Shown here piece after piece: positions 38,201 through 44,627 of a stretch of 64,000 nucleotides of DNA. The stretch is from assembly GCA_040220235.1 (NCBI GenBank), contig JAVJTO010000030.1; one strand, 5' to 3'. A program made the translations under genes and the position numbers. The notes under the pieces are model-generated. The model was not told the origin of the DNA and ran no database searches. It saw only the letters and a list, made by a program, of their open reading frames with translations. The stretch is from Coleofasciculus sp. B1-GNL1-01 (lineage in GTDB: Bacteria > Cyanobacteriota > Cyanobacteriia > Cyanobacteriales > Coleofasciculaceae). Numbering within the stretch: position 1 is the first letter of the stretch; each line of letters starts with the position of its first letter.

Positions 38201-38542
38201 GTTCCCAATCAAGGGATATGGCAATCGGCACAAAATACCTTAATTTTTGCTTTAATTGGGGTAGTTGCTATGGTTGGTTTGGCGCAAATCGTGGGGCTAC
38301 CGATTTTATTTGGTGCAGTGATTGGATTGCTGTTTGGGTTGTTTTCACCTGCGGGAATTGCTTGTATTCAGCATTTCACATTACGGTTAGTGCTGTATTT
38401 TAGTGGGTGTATTCCCTGGAATTATGCGCGATTTCTGGATTATGCGACGCAGCAGATTTTTTTACAGAAGGTGGGAGGTGGGTATATTTTTATTCACCGA
38501 TTGTTATTGGAACATTTTGCTCAGATGGAGCGAAAAATGTAA
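35288..38542 (+). CDS. Ser/Thr kinase - class III nucleotide cyclase - NACHT - multi-transmembrane fusion protein
   Basis: Kinase GRGGFG/HRDIKPSN/DFG; cyclase FTDGVGFS, IKSTGDG, GDVMGNGVNIAARLE; NACHT GEPGSGKTT and LLLDGLDEV; Gly-rich TM segments; GGGYIFIHRLLLEHFA terminus. Confidence 0.9.
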   Translation: MIGTRLRGRYEIIQPLGRGGFGETYLARDRDLPGYPYCVVKQLKPQVSNSSVLEASRRLFDTEARVLYQLGNHDQIPQLLAHFEDNQQFYLVQEHIEGEDLRHELVAGRRLDEMQAIRLVWDILEILNIVHQHQVIHRDIKPSNLIRRAADGKIILIDFGTVKQVSTATSSPTEVTIAIGTPGYMPPEQCAGKPRFSSDIHAVGMLGIQALTGVLPHHLPTDPKTGEILWRDQVAEASRFHDILAKMVCQDIRDRYDNVREVLDAIAALPSSATIPFPSQPLPRPMRTVNSLPSQLQTQRTLAAIAFTDGVGFSARMSADEEHTLDLIHRDLELMRQLCQQFSGQTIKSTGDGLLMYFPSAVLAVDCAIEIQKSLAKAAQSLSENDIILHRIGIHLGDVFVSEGDVMGNGVNIAARLEGKAQPGGICISRIVYDLVKNHLQLPTTFLGDLSLKNITDPVPSYLIQPVSSENRTYSPQSSPSKPQPKQTRQDVQFRHILLNKVRNYWIKGVLETSLHGRVLIELGLEERLDLVERPWELVWEGSGEFQQTLLPGIKVSEKFLAMGEGRSLLILGEPGSGKTTTLLELTCDLLDQADVDSNHPIPVVFNLSSWTGGKQTIADWLVNELHTKYQVSKDIGKSWIDSGELLLLLDGLDEVSITLREACVTAINQFSSEHGTTELVVCSRIRDYQALQQRLNLQAAICLQPLTLAQIDRYLNSAGTQLTVVRQVLRSDSTLQDLAQSPLMLSIITLAYQGISLDELPQRSGLDDWRKHLFDRYIQRMFKRRRGQEKYNQEQVINGLSWLAKRMYQNSETVFLIERLQPSWLDTKAQKWLYSLGVGLIGGLIMGLGGGLNVELMFWREITLLAGLIMGLGGGLMAGLIVALVMNQIEPVETLKWSWVKAKRNLLPGLRIGLTVGLIFGFSSGLVFWLITPSQEAIIEGLTYGLSGIGTGLIFVLLRGLTGGGIETSTVPNQGIWQSAQNTLIFALIGVVAMVGLAQIVGLPILFGAVIGLLFGLFSPAGIACIQHFTLRLVLYFSGCIPWNYARFLDYATQQIFLQKVGGGYIFIHRLLLEHFAQMERKM

Positions 38543-38795
38543 TACCCGTAGGGGCGCACCGACGTGCGCCCTCTTCCACTGACGTGCTATTAGTGTCAAC
38601 TTAAACCCCCTCACCCCCAGCCCCTCTCCCACCAGGGGAGAGGGGAGCAAGAAGGAAGTTTCAGATGTAATATTAGAAGCATCTTTATGTGATGGTTTCC
38701 CTTCTTTTCCCACCTTTATTTCCCCGTTTATCCCTCCCTTTGAAAGGGTGACTAGGGGGGGATAGAGTAGGGTGGGTTAGGCGGAATTAAATCCA

Positions 38796-39052
38796 GGAAA
38801 TAATCCGATAATTGGATATCCGCCGTAACCCACCAATAATGAACACCTTGCACCATTAAAGCTTGGCGAATAGAATTCGCAGCTACACAAACAAAGTCCG
38901 CCTACGCTTTTATTAAACTTGGAAATAATTCGATAATGGGATATCCGCCGTAACCCACCAATAATGCACACCTTGCACCATTAAAGCTTGGCGAATAGAA
39001 TTCGCAGCTACACAAACAAAGTCCGCCTACGCGGACTTTTATTAAACTTGGA
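38796..39052. repeat. ~125-bp tandem duplication of REP-like composite DNA
   Basis: Units start at 38796 and 38921 and share GATATCCGCCGTAACCCACCAATAATG..CCATTAAAGCTTGGCGAATAGAATTCGCAGCTACACAAACAAAGTCCGCCTACGC. Confidence 0.9.
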
Positions 39053-39090
39053 TAAGTAAACTTTCTTTATCCAGCCCAAACCCTATCCTT

Positions 39091-42000
39091 TTAATCATCA
39101 AGTTGAGCTTGAATCCCTTGGATTCGAGACTCTAACCTATCACGCTGTTCCCTTTCGGGGCGAGTCATCGGCACCAACGCTAATCCCTGTTGTAACAACT
39201 CCCTCGCCCGGTCAAAATTACCATCAGCCAGTTCTAATTCGGCTAAATCCACACAGGCGCGAAGATTAATAGTCTGGTTCAGGGAGTTTTCAAAACAGGT
39301 GCGGGCTTCAGTCGGGTTCTGCATCGCATCTCGGTAGAAGCAGCCAAACTCATACCAGAAGTGACCGTTTTTTTGATTATCAAACTTAATCGCTTGCTGG
39401 AAATGTTTGATGGCTTGTTGGTAAACCTTCCGCCCTTTGCTACTATAATTGTGACCTTGGGCTTGATAGCACCGCGCCATGTACCAGTGAGCAACGCAAT
39501 GTTTGGGGGTTTTCGTCAGGGTAGGTTGGAGATAATCCATGACTGTGTAGGGATCTGGGGGTTGGCGTAGTAGCAAGAGAAAGGCATAGTTTAATGAGGC
39601 GAAGTTAACTGTTTTCTGGAGATCATCGCCATACTTCTTGATTCGGAATTTAGCAGATTTGATGGTTCTTTGATAAATTTCTGTAGCTTTATCTAACTCA
39701 CCACAGTCTCGAAAGAAGTTCGCCGCATAGATAACGCTTTGCCACTGCGATGTATGGAGTCGAGACTGGCTAATCAAATCAGCTAATCGATAGCAGGTTT
39801 CATAATCTAAATCATTTTGAAAGTAGCCAAAAATAAGACAGATAATGGTTGCATCTTTGGGGTACTGCTGCAAAACAAGATTGACAGCTTTTTGAATCAG
39901 TCGAGGTTGGGCATGATAATATAGGACAGGTAAAAATGCAGTCCATAAAGATTGGTCTACTTGTGCTTGCTGACTAATCCATTGCCATTGCTGGATGATA
40001 ATAGGCTCAATGTCGATGATGTCTTTGCCAGCCTTTCCAACTACAGCTAAGTAGGTTGTGCGAACTTCATGATCATCAGGATATAGTTGCAACCAAGTAG
40101 TAGTTAGAGCGATCGCCTCTTGCTTCTGTTGAGTTGTCCCACACTGCCCAATCAGTGCCAGATATTGAGTACGAACATTGGTATCATCAGGATGCAGTTG
40201 CAGCCAAGAAGAAGTTTGAGCGATCGCCTCCTGCTTCTGCTGAGATGTCCCACATTGCCCAATCAGTGCTAGGTATTTTTCACGAACAGTAATATCATCA
40301 GGATGCAGTTGCAGCCAAGTAGTAGTTAGAGCGATCGCCTCCTGCTTCTGTGGAGGTGTCCCACACTGCTCAATCAGTGCTAGGTATTTTCTGCGAACTT
40401 CACGATCATAAGGATGCAGTTGCAGCCAAGTAGTAGTTAGAGCGATCGCCTCCTGCTTTTGTAGAAGTGTCCCACACTGCTCAATCAGTACCAGGTATTG
40501 AAAACCCGAATGAGCGATCGCTTCTTGCTTTTGTCGGGTTGTGCCAAACTGCCCAATCAGTGCCAGGTATTTTCTGCGAACATGAGAATTATCAGGATGC
40601 AGTTGTAGCCAAGAGGAAGTTAGAGCGATCACCTCCTGCTTCTGTGGAGATGTCCCACATTGCCCAATCAGTGCCAGATATTGAGTGCGAACCCAGGAAT
40701 CATCAGGATGTAGTTGCAGCCAAGAGGAAGTTTTAGCGATCGCCTCCTGCTTCTGTTGAGATGTCCCAAACTGTCCAATCAGTGCTAGGTATTTGGTGCG
40801 AACCCAGGAATCATCAGGATGCAGTTGCAGCCAAGAGGAAGTTTTAGCGATCGCGTTCTGCTTTTGTTGAGATGTCCCAAACTGCCCAATCAGTGCTAGG
40901 TATTGAGTACGAACATATGTATCATCAGGATGCAGTTGCAGCCAAGAGGAAGTTAGAGCGATCGCCTCTTGCTTCTGTTGGTTCGTCCCCAACTGCCCAA
41001 TCAGTGCTAGGTATTTGGTGCGAACATGAAAATCATCAGGATGTAGTTGCAGCCAAGAGGAAGTTAGAGCGATCGCCTCCTGCTTTTGCTCATTTTTACC
41101 ACGCCTTTGTATCAGAGACAGCCAATAAACCCACTCTGATGAACTTTGTGGTTCAGTGGATAAAATTGCATCCAAGCAGCGATCGCGTTCCGACAGTAAA
41201 CCTACAGATTCATACATCTTTGACCATGTAAACCATCCACTAACCCCACTCTTATGCTGTAGAGATTGAATCTGGTTGGAATAGTCATCCACAACCTGAC
41301 GGACAAGAGTCACTTCACCATTCACAGCCAAAAGTCTCAATCCATGATACGCCCAGCGTTGATGAGTTTCTTTAGTTGCCTTTAAAGCCGGAATTGCCGC
41401 TCTTAAATAGTCTTCTAATAAATTAGGAGAATAGGGTAGATTCTCGCCCCGACTGCGCGGGTACTTCACCGTCATCGCTGTTTGGGCAATGAGTTCGTGA
41501 ATTGTTGCAAACCCATCATATCCAGCCTTCCAGATTATATTCACCAAGCCCTTTAATTCGGCATCTCTGGCAAAATCCACCACATCCCGCACCGCTTTTT
41601 TAGAATAGTTCGGCAAACACAACGGCAACACTCCCGTAGGTGTAATAATGCTGTATTGATAAAAACTGCAAATCACGCCAAAAACTTGATAAACCGGATA
41701 ATCCTCATCACTGGGCAAACGCCTAATCACATCCGCCACAATTAAATCAAAGGGTTTCCCTTCCGATAGCTGTAACATCAGTACCAACATTGAAGGCGCA
41801 GCCATTAACTGTTTCCGTTCTGCTGCTGCCATTTTCTCTAATCGGGCTTTGGCTTCCCCATCTTCCTGACAAATCCGATCCAAAATTCGCTGTTTTTCCT
41901 GAGATTCTGGCAAGGGAGATAATTCTAAATCCAGGGATTCAATCCGATATCCCCGCAACCGTAACTTGTCCTGCTGATCTTCATTCAACCGCGTTGTGCC

Positions 42001-42879
42001 AATTACCGTTAGCGGAAACTGTAACTCATTATTCTCCAACTCCTCCAGAATCGAATCATCCCGAAACACGTCATCGGCGATTAAATAAAAATGCTGATGA
42101 ATTTGCTCAGAAAACTCCCATAATGGGTCTAACCAGTAGGGTTCTTCTCGCTTTTTCTGCAACACCAGCCGATGTTGACCCGATAACTCATACGCCAACC
42201 ATTGCATCAGCGCCGTTTTCCCCGCCCCCGGTTGTCCCCGAATCAGCAACAGGGAAATCCCCGAATAGTTTGCCAACGCTTCAGCCTGGGCGAAAACCTC
42301 CCCTTGTTGATCCCGATCAATATAATTCCCTTGGGTAATCAACGACCAATTTTTAGACACAGAGGGTAATTTCAGGATGCGCGTCTCTCCCCCACGCCGC
42401 TTATGAAAGAATTTCTGATCCAACAAATCAAACTCAGGCGGGACAACCTTCCGCACCTGTCCCCAGGGATCGTTACCCTGGCGAGTTTGCGTCTGGCGTC
42501 GTTGGGTATCGCATTCTGCATCAAACCGAATCAGATTTTTCTGCTTGTCAGTCTCCCAGAGACGAATCGTTAGCTGCTGTGTCGAACCCTGCTGATTGTC
42601 TGGACGCTGAACGATCCCGAAACCCTCTAGAAACTTGATCGCTGATTCAACTTTGGCGTAAGTCAACCCACCCTCAGCCTGATCATTTTCGGTCAATTCC
42701 ACCAGAGAGTTAATCGTATAAGTGACAAACAATCCCGGCGGATCAGTTTGAGGGCGAACAGTCAGAGGTTTCTTCGTGGAATTTTGCCTCTCTAAGGTTC
42801 CATCAGCGACATCCAGCAACGCCGCCAATATACGCTTGGCATTCTCCTGAACGATTCGACCTTTACTATACTCTGTCAT
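39091..42879 (-). CDS. STAND-like P-loop NTPase with a putative N-terminal wHTH, an array of 37-aa near-identical repeats and C-terminal TPRs
   Basis: GQPGAGKT Walker A; FYLIADD Walker B; ten KQEAIA..WLQLHPDD..VR..YLALIGQ.G repeats; TPR-like C-terminus (AIKHFQQAIKFD, WYEFGCFY). Confidence 0.85.
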   Translation of the reverse strand: MTEYSKGRIVQENAKRILAALLDVADGTLERQNSTKKPLTVRPQTDPPGLFVTYTINSLVELTENDQAEGGLTYAKVESAIKFLEGFGIVQRPDNQQGSTQQLTIRLWETDKQKNLIRFDAECDTQRRQTQTRQGNDPWGQVRKVVPPEFDLLDQKFFHKRRGGETRILKLPSVSKNWSLITQGNYIDRDQQGEVFAQAEALANYSGISLLLIRGQPGAGKTALMQWLAYELSGQHRLVLQKKREEPYWLDPLWEFSEQIHQHFYLIADDVFRDDSILEELENNELQFPLTVIGTTRLNEDQQDKLRLRGYRIESLDLELSPLPESQEKQRILDRICQEDGEAKARLEKMAAAERKQLMAAPSMLVLMLQLSEGKPFDLIVADVIRRLPSDEDYPVYQVFGVICSFYQYSIITPTGVLPLCLPNYSKKAVRDVVDFARDAELKGLVNIIWKAGYDGFATIHELIAQTAMTVKYPRSRGENLPYSPNLLEDYLRAAIPALKATKETHQRWAYHGLRLLAVNGEVTLVRQVVDDYSNQIQSLQHKSGVSGWFTWSKMYESVGLLSERDRCLDAILSTEPQSSSEWVYWLSLIQRRGKNEQKQEAIALTSSWLQLHPDDFHVRTKYLALIGQLGTNQQKQEAIALTSSWLQLHPDDTYVRTQYLALIGQFGTSQQKQNAIAKTSSWLQLHPDDSWVRTKYLALIGQFGTSQQKQEAIAKTSSWLQLHPDDSWVRTQYLALIGQCGTSPQKQEVIALTSSWLQLHPDNSHVRRKYLALIGQFGTTRQKQEAIAHSGFQYLVLIEQCGTLLQKQEAIALTTTWLQLHPYDREVRRKYLALIEQCGTPPQKQEAIALTTTWLQLHPDDITVREKYLALIGQCGTSQQKQEAIAQTSSWLQLHPDDTNVRTQYLALIGQCGTTQQKQEAIALTTTWLQLYPDDHEVRTTYLAVVGKAGKDIIDIEPIIIQQWQWISQQAQVDQSLWTAFLPVLYYHAQPRLIQKAVNLVLQQYPKDATIICLIFGYFQNDLDYETCYRLADLISQSRLHTSQWQSVIYAANFFRDCGELDKATEIYQRTIKSAKFRIKKYGDDLQKTVNFASLNYAFLLLLRQPPDPYTVMDYLQPTLTKTPKHCVAHWYMARCYQAQGHNYSSKGRKVYQQAIKHFQQAIKFDNQKNGHFWYEFGCFYRDAMQNPTEARTCFENSLNQTINLRACVDLAELELADGNFDRARELLQQGLALVPMTRPEREQRDRLESRIQGIQAQLDD
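40030..41085 (-). repeat. Intragenic 111-bp tandem repeat array (9 full units plus one 72-bp truncated unit)
   Basis: Unit starts at 41085 and 40125 are 960 bp apart, which equals 8x111+72; 9 of 10 units contain a HIP1 GCGATCGC. Confidence 0.95.
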
Positions 42880-43062
42880 GCGTTGAACCCAGAGAGTTCT
42901 GTAAAACTTGATAACAACTTCAGGAAAACCGGAGGTGTTTTCCCTAACCGGAAGTGATAGAACTCCAAACCTAGTCTTTATTCTAAAGCCTTTACCCCAA
43001 GCCTGTTGCTTGCGGCTATCAACCGAACGATTTCATCGAACTGTAGCGTTCAAGGTTCGGTT

Positions 43063-43254
43063 ATGGGTTCAACCAAAAATTGTCGATGGATTCAACAATT
43101 AATCCAGGGGTTCAAACACTTGAATTCCCACGGATGGCTAATGATCATCATCAAGTTTCTGATTCCCTTCTTGATTGGATTGTTTTATCCCAATCTGGCG
43201 TTATTGATTGAAGTGTTAATTTTAAGTTGGGAACTGTGGGATAGTTTAAGGTAA
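43063..43254 (+). CDS. Small putative membrane protein divergent from the repeat NTPase
   Basis: 63-aa ORF from ATG 43063 with two hydrophobic segments (WLMIIIKFLIPFLIGLFY, LALLIEVLILSW). Confidence 0.45.
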   Translation: MGSTKNCRWIQQLIQGFKHLNSHGWLMIIIKFLIPFLIGLFYPNLALLIEVLILSWELWDSLR

Positions 43255-43490
43255 GCTGTTCGGCATTTAAACCATAATGTCAAGAATTGCGAAATCCTTG
43301 CCGTAGTGCGAGCATCTTGCTCGCTACATTGAGCATCTTGCTCGCTACATTGAGCATCTTGCTCGCTACCCATTCCCAATTTACAGCGCTTTTCAGGTTT
43401 ATGGAATACAAAATTGTATTGGCTTGCTTTTTAGCGCAATCATCGTCTGTAGTCTATTAACTTGAAAACTGCTGTAAATGCATGACAGCT
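43254..43490. mobile_element. MITE with internal 21-bp triplication and a nested MITE (43384-43474)
   Basis: Outer TA|AGCTGTTCGGCATTTAAA..TAAATGCATGACAGCT|TA; (GAGCATCTTGCTCGCTACATT) x3; inner TA|CAGCGCTTTCAGG..CTTGAAAACTGCTG|TA. Confidence 0.8.
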
Positions 43491-43817
43491 TAGTAGCGCG
43501 GCACAGTTTATTTGATGAATTAGATTCGGCTTGTAGTAGGGAACCTTAGCCCTAGATTCCGTTGGGTTTCCTGTCGTCAACCCAACCTACAACCTACCCC
43601 ACAATTTTAGCTATGTCAGTCCAGTAGTAGCGCGGCACACCTAATTTAGATTAGCCTTACATCCAGAAATCGTAGGGGCGCACGTCAGTGCGCCTGACAA
43701 AACCGTAAATTTTATTGTCTATTCCCATGAATGACTATTGCCCATTGCCTATTCCCTGTTCCCTAATCTCAACCGTTAACTCTACTTTTGCCCCACTACT
43801 GATCTATCAATATCAAT

Positions 43818-44627
43818 TTACCCCACCGCTAAAGGATTTAACCAGCGAATCATCTCTAATTTCAATCGATTTAAATCCCGATAAACCCCTTGCTTCATCC
43901 ACTGACCGATCGCATCAAATGGCGTGAAGGAATCTCCCGTTTTCCAATTGACATCTTGTCCCAACGGTGTTAAATGATTTCCCGGTAGCATTTGTAGCAC
44001 AACCATATTCGGAAATCGCTGTTGCAGCACAGGGGATAGGATTGCCGTTTGGTCAATCTCATCATTGATAAATTTAATCAGTAAATTGCGACGGATGGCG
44101 TATTGCTGGGCAATCAGATCATTCGTTTGTTGGGGTGAAGGAGTAAATTCAACGTCAAAGGCTGGCTTGATATTCAACTGCTTGAGGAATGTCAACTGAT
44201 CCAGCATATTGAACTGTTCCAGAAACGGAATCGCCTGTTTTGCTGGATAATTGTTGAAGGAAATCAAAATATTACCCGCCCGTTCCACGGAAAACAAACT
44301 GCCAATCAGCAGATGCAGTTTACACCCCATGCTATGTCCGACACCGTATATCGGTAAATACTGTTTCTTGAGTAGTCTTGTGGCTTTGAGGCGATCAAGG
44401 GTTGTCTCAAAACGGTTGAGGACTTCGCGGGCGATCGCAACGTGATCTAAGGTATTGAGAAACGGCGTCGCCACAACCAAATAACCCTGACGCCCTAATT
44501 GCTCAAGTAGCCAACGGTAGGTGACTTGGGGCGCAGCCGCAATAAATGCCCCACCCAAAAAATGCACAATGCCAACGGGACGAGACGGAATTAAAACCCA
44601 GCTACCAGATAGTTCTTGCCAGTCCAT
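43818..44627 (-). CDS. DUF1350 family alpha/beta-hydrolase-like protein
   Basis: MDWQELSGSWVLIP..HFLGGAF..GVGHSMGCKLHLL..GNHLTP. Confidence 0.85.
   Translation of the reverse strand: MDWQELSGSWVLIPSRPVGIVHFLGGAFIAAAPQVTYRWLLEQLGRQGYLVVATPFLNTLDHVAIAREVLNRFETTLDRLKATRLLKKQYLPIYGVGHSMGCKLHLLIGSLFSVERAGNILISFNNYPAKQAIPFLEQFNMLDQLTFLKQLNIKPAFDVEFTPSPQQTNDLIAQQYAIRRNLLIKFINDEIDQTAILSPVLQQRFPNMVVLQMLPGNHLTPLGQDVNWKTGDSFTPFDAIGQWMKQGVYRDLNRLKLEMIRWLNPLAVG

Follow-up and report, generated by a model that had tools for sequence, protein, structure and literature searches.

What kind of protein results when a nucleotide-binding switch is joined to a tandem array of helical repeats whose units vary most at one pair of residues? 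The question was raised by a gene of Coleofasciculus sp. B1-GNL1-01, located in a stretch of 64,000 nucleotides (nt) of contig JAVJTO010000030.1 (assembly GCA_040220235.1; this whole stretch is referred to as the window) and first described from the DNA letters, without database searches, as a candidate programmable sensor (the sequence-only reading). The gene is a single open reading frame (ORF), open across 1262 codons in the ORF list and translation. The encoded protein is an NLR-like STAND NTPase with an N-terminal adaptor, related to the NLR immune receptors of plants, animals and fungi, and is a clear example of an already described receptor type, not a new kind of molecule or system. 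With a probability of roughly 0.6 it is an NLR-like invader sensor, in which a stripe of variable residues would capture a ligand (most likely a protein), binding would cause the NTPase to switch and oligomerise, and the EAD4 adaptor would recruit an executor. Coordinates of all features are collected in Table 1.

The assignment as an NLR-like STAND NTPase was made because of the Pfam domains, the Walker motifs and the structural matches to STAND proteins. EAD4 and nSTAND5 both scored above their Pfam cut-offs in the protein (Table 1), and nSTAND5 was again above cut-off (42 bits) in a six-frame search of the genome. Walker A fits GxxxxGK[ST] and Walker B fits hhhhDD; across 30 aligned homologues G215, G218, G220, K221 and T222 of Walker A were invariant and D269/D270 of Walker B nearly so. 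The N-terminal half was modelled as aa (amino acids) 1-600 with AlphaFold2 to a predicted local distance difference test score (pLDDT) of 82.6, the EAD4 region being mixed alpha+beta with helices and strands in aa 8-133. Foldseek matched this model to STAND proteins in the PDB, with SAMD9 at 7.3e-10, EfAvs5 at 6.7e-8 and Apaf-1 at 5e-7; ranks 1-9 (SAMD9, Avs5, Apaf-1) aligned over 488-668 columns, and 6mfv (an archaeal-type STAND protein with TPRs), CED-4, NLRPs, MalT (8bob) and plant NLR resistosomes were also matched. The sequence-only reading had proposed an NLR-like switch, with P-loop motifs ahead of the array and ordinary TPRs after it, and this layout was recovered. Its further statement that no described family was recognisable did not hold, as Pfam has families for both EAD4 and nSTAND5, which go back to the studies of conflict systems by Kaur et al. 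An NCBIfam scan gave nothing above a cut-off, and an Rfam scan of positions 38400-43900 gave no usable match.

The array was located by Tandem Repeats Finder as a 111-nt periodicity at 40072-41085 (86% matches), and units were delimited in the protein by cutting at KQEAIA anchors. Nine units were 37 aa long and the sixth, with a 13-aa deletion, was 24 aa. The di-residues at positions 19-20 were, unit by unit, FH, TY, SW, SW, SH, deleted, RE, IT, TN and HE, and those at positions 23-24 were, in order, TK, TQ, TK, TQ, RK, RK, EK, TQ and TT, so that the ten units and both lists of the first description were reproduced exactly. Entropy was highest at positions 19 (2.42 bits) and 20 (2.50 bits), followed by 35 (2.06), 32 (1.75), 36 (1.66), 24 (1.35) and 7 and 23 (1.22 each). 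Variation was also seen at positions 7, 9-10, 32 and 35-36, and 15 of the 37 positions, among them an alanine at position 27, were invariant across the nine full units. At DNA level units 1-9 were 80-91% identical (mean 0.846) and the capping last unit was 63-73% identical to the others; the repeat pattern at DNA level described earlier is real and goes far beyond chance, and its description as near-identical somewhat overstated the degree.

Two side observations were made on the array DNA. The cyanobacterial HIP1 palindrome, the octamer GCGATCGC, occurs in 9 of the 10 units (40109-41076), always at the codons for E-A-I-A, and the 1.07 kb of the array hold 9 of the 55 HIP1 sites in the whole window. 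Opposite the array, plus-strand open frames run at 40467-40736 (89 aa) and 40872-41231 (119 aa); they are themselves repetitive (AQSV.GI...) and are most likely by-products of the repeats, not genes.

Selection was estimated by counting. In codons 19-20 the nucleotide diversity of the first and second bases was 0.68, against 0.17 at ten four-fold scaffold sites. For per-codon rates a tree of 25 unique units was built on scaffold columns alone; per-codon proportions of synonymous differences at the hypervariable codons are inflated by multi-step codon paths, and the scaffold synonymous sites were utilized as the denominator instead. Relative to the synonymous rate of the scaffold, non-synonymous changes per site stood at 5.9 for codon 19 and 5.6 for codon 20, followed by codons 23 (2.7), 36 (2.4), 35 (2.3), 9 (2.1) and 24 (1.7), and the 30 scaffold codons had a ratio of non-synonymous to synonymous rates (dN/dS) of 0.35 (pooled Nei-Gojobori). 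Against the intact orthologue of a congener (genome G003) the N-terminal flank gave dN 0.035 and dS 0.096 (0.37), and the C-terminal flank, with the C-terminal domain 86% identical, gave dN 0.072 and dS 0.204 (0.35). By these ratios the flanks, and so the gene, are under purifying selection. The excess of non-synonymous change at 19-20, on which the programmable-sensor proposal depended, was thus present, and the data argue, short of proof, for diversifying selection at codons 19 and 20.

These rates bear on a more ordinary explanation, a housekeeping STAND regulator or scaffold like MalT, in which the variable residues are unconstrained surface and the array is homogenised by gene conversion. 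It is consistent with the housekeeping genes on either side, with MalT among the structural matches, with variable positions that are the exposed ones of any helical hairpin, and with the lack of any matching defence model. Neutral drift should however stay at or below the synonymous rate, whereas codons 19 and 20 stand at 5.6-5.9 times that rate and their diversity exceeds that of four-fold sites as given above. Loss or decay in seven of eight congeners would be unexpected for such a gene, as would the swapping of its N-terminus for caspase, TIR or nuclease in relatives (both below), and the explanation is regarded as unlikely.

The hypervariable di-residue is a property of the family and not peculiar to one gene, because positions 19, 20 and 23 also top the variability of other arrays. 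A hidden Markov model of the unit extracted 238 ungapped units, and in the 22 other proteins that have five units or more, positions 19, 20 and 23 ranked first, second and third for entropy within the array, followed by 35, 14, 32 and 24. Together with the entropy of the present array, this sustains the proposal that the helical scaffold is fixed and that hypervariability is limited to a few residues. Among 258 units there were 94 distinct 19-20 di-residues and 165 distinct four-residue combinations. Positions 19 and 20 each accept nineteen different amino acids, W, F, Y and H among them, T/S being commonest at 19 and N/D/S at 20.

A search with the whole protein gave 60 homologues, every named one cyanobacterial, the closest being from Coleofasciculus (86% identity), followed by Brasilonema, Nodosilinea, Trichocoleus, Spirulina, Waterburya and Pseudanabaena. 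In precomputed lists PF25199 was present in 52 of the 60, and the N-terminal slot held caspase in 24, EAD4 in 11, trypsin-like domains in 7, CHAT in 4 and no annotation in 14. A search with the array only gave 57 proteins, mostly of the same family. When phmmer was run against 1.84 billion representative proteins, 474 matches were obtained at E ≤ 0.001, 84 of them at E ≤ 1e-30. From 150 listed matches, 30 (new identifiers, at least 900 aa, in rank order) were scanned for domains: nSTAND5 was found in 21, other named STAND families in none, and a generic AAA_16 P-loop and an RNA_helicase match in one case each. The N-termini of these 30 also include TIR, Cap4 nuclease, EAD8, DUF4062 and trypsin. 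In 301 sampled genomes of the phylum, nSTAND5 was above cut-off in 21; a search at E ≤ 1e-5 mostly caught generic P-loops (also in 5 of 14 control genomes), and only the cut-off count is usable. The repeat family is therefore small and, in the lists examined, mostly paired with one NTPase clade.

Orthologues were compared in eight congener genomes, in which the gene was intact in one, a remnant in four and without a match in three. The intact orthologue of G003 is 1645 aa long and has 20 units. G004 holds a remnant lacking the first ∼300 residues, with two units; G002, G001 and G006 hold scattered pieces with stop codons; and G005, G007 and G008 (96-100% complete), like 22 genomes of other genera, gave no match to the gene. 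In two orthologues from other sources, P0002 and P0003, the full-length units (37 aa, without gaps) numbered 9 and 10, the second protein stopping early at 1169 aa. Arrays in the genus thus range from 2 to 20 units and are not invariant, in keeping with the reshufflable array first envisaged, since both number and order differ among orthologues. The gene is single-copy in the present genome.

Mean nucleotide identity of units was 0.852 within the G003 array and 0.842 between the two arrays, compared with 0.846 within the present one. Best unit matches between the two arrays fell at non-corresponding positions, units 8, 11 and 14 of G003 were 100% identical in DNA, and the unit types HE.RH, IT.TK and TN.TQ recurred at differing places across orthologues. 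Metagenome contigs of ∼95%-identical relatives bridged array segments of 333 and 345 nt, or stepped back 615 nt. The best public sequencing run contained 0.19 of the sampled words. Units appear to have been duplicated, deleted and reordered through recombination between the 85%-identical scaffolds. As side observations, contigs from an RNA library of a ∼95%-identical relative span 40950-42690, possibly through DNA carry-over, and in G002 (L025 6262-8131) the NTPase and array are replaced by ∼1.9 kb of unrelated DNA with ORFs of 188 aa and 223 aa. This DNA sits between the first ∼74 codons of the remnant and the C-terminal domain, and the 223-aa ORF is pentapeptide-repeat-like by eye.

The same comparison could be taken to describe a decaying, functionless gene whose variability is relaxed constraint before loss. 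The four congeners with remnants carry deletions and stop codons, unit 6 is truncated and P0003 ends early, all of which decay would produce. Set against this are the frame of 1262 open codons, flank dN/dS of 0.35-0.37 relative to the intact G003 gene, invariant Walker A residues, and variation that, instead of being evenly spread, falls with helical periodicity on a small number of codons. Decay of the present gene is accordingly rated very improbable.

The C-terminal half was modelled as aa 541-1262 with AlphaFold2 (pLDDT 91.1) and consisted entirely of helix pairs in an all-helical solenoid. Each unit is laid out in the model as a helix from 35' of the previous unit to 14, a loop at 15-18 (HPDD), a helix at 19-32, and then G33-T34; residues 19-20 are predicted to open the second helix, with 23-24 one turn on. 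Unit 6 was modelled as one long helix (model 241-262, aa 781-802), pLDDT falling to 79-88. Foldseek of this half gave TPR, HAT and PPR solenoids (Ctr9, Ski3, Prp6, IFT-A, PPR10). The array had not been recognised as a described family in the sequence-only reading. When scanned alone it matched PPTA at 82.4 bits (cut-off 29.5, six stretches) and TPR_14 at 49.8 bits (cut-off 23.5), both members of the TPR clan, and these profiles above cut-off, with the hairpin-solenoid model, place it in that clan. Two narrower identities were rejected. A canonical TPR needs a 34-residue period, and the array has a period of 111 nt, that is 37 aa; a true PPTA (prenyltransferase alpha subunit) is at odds with the architecture EAD4-NTPase-repeats, with no prenyltransferase context among the neighbours.

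When the array was compared with PDB chains by phmmer, alphaRep proteins came out top (6ft5, E 2.4e-7; the GFP binder 4xl5, E 2.3e-4; 3ltj). In the alignment D18-x19-x20-V-R-x23-x24 lies over alphaRep D17-x18-x19-V-R-x22-x23, and L-I-G-Q-x-G lies over A-L-G-x-I-G, with six extra residues in helix 1 (37 = 31 + 6). The alphaRep motif (DxxVRxxAAxALGxIG) and the variable-pair columns coincide, yet the unit is 37 aa, per-stretch E-values are weak and no Pfam HEAT family was among the matches listed. The 37-aa period does set the unit apart from the canonical TPR, as had been noted, but it does not exclude the TPR/HEAT-like class, since the unit aligns to the 31-aa alphaRep with six residues added in helix 1. 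The alphaRep library was randomised at 18-19, 22-23, 26 and 30, positions picked because they vary naturally among the parent repeats, and in crystal complexes the binding interface is made by the concave faces bearing them (PMC3754942; this and the other papers identified below by accession or DOI are cited from excerpts, to which the statements are limited). In the present helix 2 the entropy had a helical moment of 0.51, with 19, 20, 23, 24, 27, 30 and 31 within 72 degrees of one face. Residues 19, 20, 23 and 24, joined in relatives by 27, 30 and 31, may therefore form a stripe along the solenoid as a putative ligand-binding surface. It is suggested that the positions randomised by engineers in alphaRep binders are those that nature varies in an immune-type receptor, and the correspondence could help both in looking for the ligand and in designing binders.

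The nucleic-acid option of the sequence-only reading would make the array a programmable reader like TALE, PPR or PUF proteins, with one base read per unit through the 19-20 di-residue. In TALE and PPR codes each repeat bears one small variable residue set on a fixed helical scaffold, and here too one unit carries one variable di-residue. RNA-bound PPR10 was among the better superpositions (TM-score 0.47-0.49), and the commonest residues are T/S at 19 and N/D/S at 20; enrichment of S, T, N and D is expected at a helix N-terminus. A four-letter code predicts few recurrent pairs, whereas the 258 units hold the 94 di-residues and 165 four-residue combinations counted above, with 19 kinds of residue per position, W, F, Y and H included. 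The array has 32 K+R against 31 D+E, hence no basic groove is expected, and its closest relatives in sequence, alphaRep and the TPR clan, are protein binders. Unlike TALE and PPR repeats, the present units show neither a small recurrent code nor net positive charge, and their variable residues lie elsewhere in the unit. A code of this type is considered very unlikely.

Table 1. Positions of the gene, its parts and its convergent neighbour in the window
Feature	Position	Strand	Description and basis
Whole gene	39091..42879	minus	1262 aa + stop; EAD4, nSTAND5 NTPase, 37-aa array, TPR-like tail; ORF list, translation, Pfam
EAD4 adaptor, aa 7-122	42514..42861	minus	Pfam PF19959, 53.5 bits (cut-off 27)
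nSTAND5 P-loop NTPase core, aa 177-300	41980..42351	minus	Pfam PF25199 (nSTAND_NTPase5), 37.4 bits (cut-off 34)
Walker A GQPGAGKT, aa 215-222	42214-42237	minus	Motif position
Walker B FYLIADD, aa 264-270	42070-42090	minus	Motif position
GTTR motif, aa 294-297	41989-42000	minus	Motif position
Helical and winged-helix-like domains and helical arm, aa 301-598	41086..41979	minus	Link from NTPase to array; AlphaFold2 model, Foldseek
Repeat array, aa 599-955: ten helical hairpins of 37 aa (unit 6 shorter)	40015..41085	minus	Tandem Repeats Finder, KQEAIA anchors, entropy
Unit 6, 24 aa	40459..40530	minus	Lacks positions ∼7-19, hypervariable pair included
Hypervariable codons 19-20, first four	41026-41031, 40915-40920, 40804-40809, 40693-40698	minus	Unit alignment
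Hypervariable codons 19-20, next five	40582-40587, 40399-40404, 40288-40293, 40177-40182, 40066-40071	minus	Unit alignment
Conserved C-terminal TPR-like domain, aa 956-1262	39094..40014	minus	Pfam TPR_14, TPR_2, TPR_12 and TPR_19 at aa 1135-1237
Convergent neighbour, 1084 aa	35288-38542	plus	Ser/Thr kinase, adenylate/guanylate cyclase, NACHT, glycine-rich multi-pass membrane tail; Pfam

In the preferred reading the protein is a cytoplasmic receptor in a filamentous, mat-forming cyanobacterium. The ten hairpin units would stack into an alpha-solenoid that binds a ligand, most likely an invader protein, for example of a cyanophage or other mobile element. The bound ligand would free the nSTAND5 NTPase from autoinhibition, nucleotide exchange would lead to oligomerisation, and the clustered EAD4 adaptors would recruit or activate a death or defence effector. 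Relatives, in which the same slot directly carries caspase, trypsin, CHAT, TIR or a nuclease, would bypass recruitment, and specificity may evolve by unit shuffling and diversifying selection on exposed codons. EADs act as recruiting adaptors (PMC7159879) and STAND sensors bind phage proteins (PMC10907252). What the data show directly are the arrangement of domains, the class of fold, where the variation lies and how it recurs, the surplus of amino-acid change, the polymorphism in unit number and order, the swapped output slot and the turnover of the gene; the type of ligand, the assembly into oligomers, the recruitment of an effector and the role in defence are put forward as inferred steps.

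Several points weigh against this sensor. The gene is flanked not by a defence island but by housekeeping genes (DUF1350, FKBP, a pentapeptide protein, rubrerythrin, PsbO, a methyltransferase), PADLOC had no model matching the gene, and no family member has a known ligand, phage trigger or phenotype. A search of the genome found no EAD4-effector fusion that could carry out the output step. The truncated unit 6 interrupts the regular stack. The predicted placement of residues 19, 20, 23 and 24 on a concave binding face is drawn from the alphaRep alignment and helical periodicity, and the observed helical moment was reached by 348 of 5000 shuffles. The selection estimates, made by counting, ignore within-unit recombination and come from two draft-assembly arrays, and repeat arrays can be mis-assembled.

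The search for a partner of the adaptor gave two EAD4 matches in the 8.66-Mb genome, one of them the present gene. The second protein, on a different contig (L008 2680-6711, G000:C88), is 1343 aa long with EAD4 (126.6 bits), NB-ARC, APAF1_C and a long HEAT-like array (LP..L..AL..A..IQDE..RA.AL..LA), and has no effector domain. The cognate EAD is as a rule carried by an effector, frequently a neighbouring one (PMC7159879; PMC8195603); by contrast with this published rule, the second EAD4 of the present genome is on another STAND protein.

The upstream side of the locus is syntenic in G002, G003 and G004, and downstream homology ends at 38767-38934, inside a 125-nt tandem repeat. The position beyond is occupied in G003 by a Na+/H+ exchanger-TrkA gene and in the present genome by the kinase-cyclase-NACHT-membrane protein of Table 1, whose PADLOC matches (PD-T4-6, mad6, MkoA) are restricted to its kinase part. 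Two STAND genes therefore adjoin in the present genome only. The 125-nt repeat (38796-39052, 2 copies, 94% matches) lies between them and synteny with G002, G003 and G004 stops at it; its positions 69-112 are a dispersed ∼44-nt repeat with 42 matches in the genome and very high metagenome contig depth. A perfect 21-nt tandem repeat of 2.9 copies (43310-43369) lies between the gene start and DUF1350. No reverse-transcriptase family was found by Pfam matches among 15 ORFs of at least 100 aa at 24-52 kb.

The ligand might instead be a polymorphic protein of conspecifics, the array serving allorecognition or kin discrimination in dense mats and leading to death or exclusion, as for HET-E/NWD. The signature of conserved repeats, number polymorphism and hypervariable helix sites matches that of fungal het NLRs (PMC4986451), this alternative has been raised for sensors of multicellular bacteria (PMC10907252), and the gene is present, absent or decayed across congeners. 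The data do not discriminate self from invader ligands. No polymorphic partner locus is known, the outputs fused in relatives (TIR, Cap4 nuclease, caspase) are those typical of anti-phage defence, and the gene is single-copy, unlike the exchanging fungal NWD gene family. Self recognition is accordingly held to be improbable, and the invader sensor is preferred.

In a more speculative reading, judged rather unlikely, the array may be a natural self-renewing binder library. With the HIP1 palindrome at one and the same place in all units except one, inter-unit recombination within and between co-existing strains could yield new specificities on ecological time scales. If true, a mat-forming organism would possess a population-level, quasi-adaptive NLR repertoire, directed at phages or serving kin/non-kin recognition, relying on the positional principle later adopted by engineers for alphaRep.

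Among known systems, fungal NLRs (HET-E/NWD; the NB-ARC/TPR protein Pa_2_10340) share the tripartite order of effector or adaptor, STAND NTPase and repeats, and likewise have 80-90% identical units, repeat-number polymorphism, an excess of amino-acid change at a few helix sites, and shuffling (PMC4986451). Their positively selected sites lie on the concave face (PMC4986451). The present protein differs in being bacterial, in having nSTAND5 and not NACHT or NB-ARC, and in a unit of 37 and not 34 or 42 aa; the gene is also single-copy, without paralogue exchange, and has no known incompatibility phenotype. The EAD-STAND conflict systems (Kaur et al. 2020, PMC7159879; 2021, PMC8195603) share the N-terminal EAD4, the STAND NTPase, C-terminal helical repeats, a filamentous cyanobacterial host and the swapping of effector domains in relatives, but a hypervariable 37-aa unit is not among the features described in the excerpts of those papers.

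Avs and bacterial NACHT proteins likewise combine an N-terminal effector, a STAND NTPase and a C-terminal TPR-like sensor for phage proteins (PMC10907252; 10.64898/2026.01.04.697583), and EfAvs5 is a top structural match of the present N-terminal half. Nothing in the same excerpts describes Avs sensors as built from nearly identical units with hypervariable positions, and the PADLOC models that recognise defence systems did not match here. In STAND sensors diversified by diversity-generating retroelements, the sensor end of a conflict protein is also varied in multicellular bacteria, but there the changes are introduced into a C-type lectin fold by means of a reverse transcriptase and a template repeat (PMC10907252), whereas here units are shuffled. 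With alphaRep the unit shares the motif (D/E)D-x-x-V-R-x-x-..-L-G-x-(I)-G and variable pairs in the same columns; alphaRep libraries also vary in unit number and their variable residues form the binding face (PMC3754942). AlphaRep differs in its 31-aa unit, in a variable position 26 where the present unit has the invariant Ala 27, in weak per-stretch E-values, and in being man-made and without an NTPase.

Literature searches, which did not cover subscription journals, gave no account of the present 37-aa unit, its hypervariable sites or its range of 2 to 20 copies. According to a 2020 preprint, bacterial NLRs also have WD and TPR repeats with 80-90% internal identity and might diversify like the fungal ones (10.1101/2020.01.06.895854). 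In the excerpts of that source the possible parallel between such near-identical repeats and the fast-evolving fungal sensors is touched on only briefly, and the present locus is a concrete, tractable case. Its hypervariable sites are clear, array size varies ten-fold within one genus, and the caspase, TIR or nuclease outputs of relatives are directly assayable; the correspondence with alphaRep is the one unexpected detail in what is otherwise a recognisable bacterial counterpart of the NLR plan.

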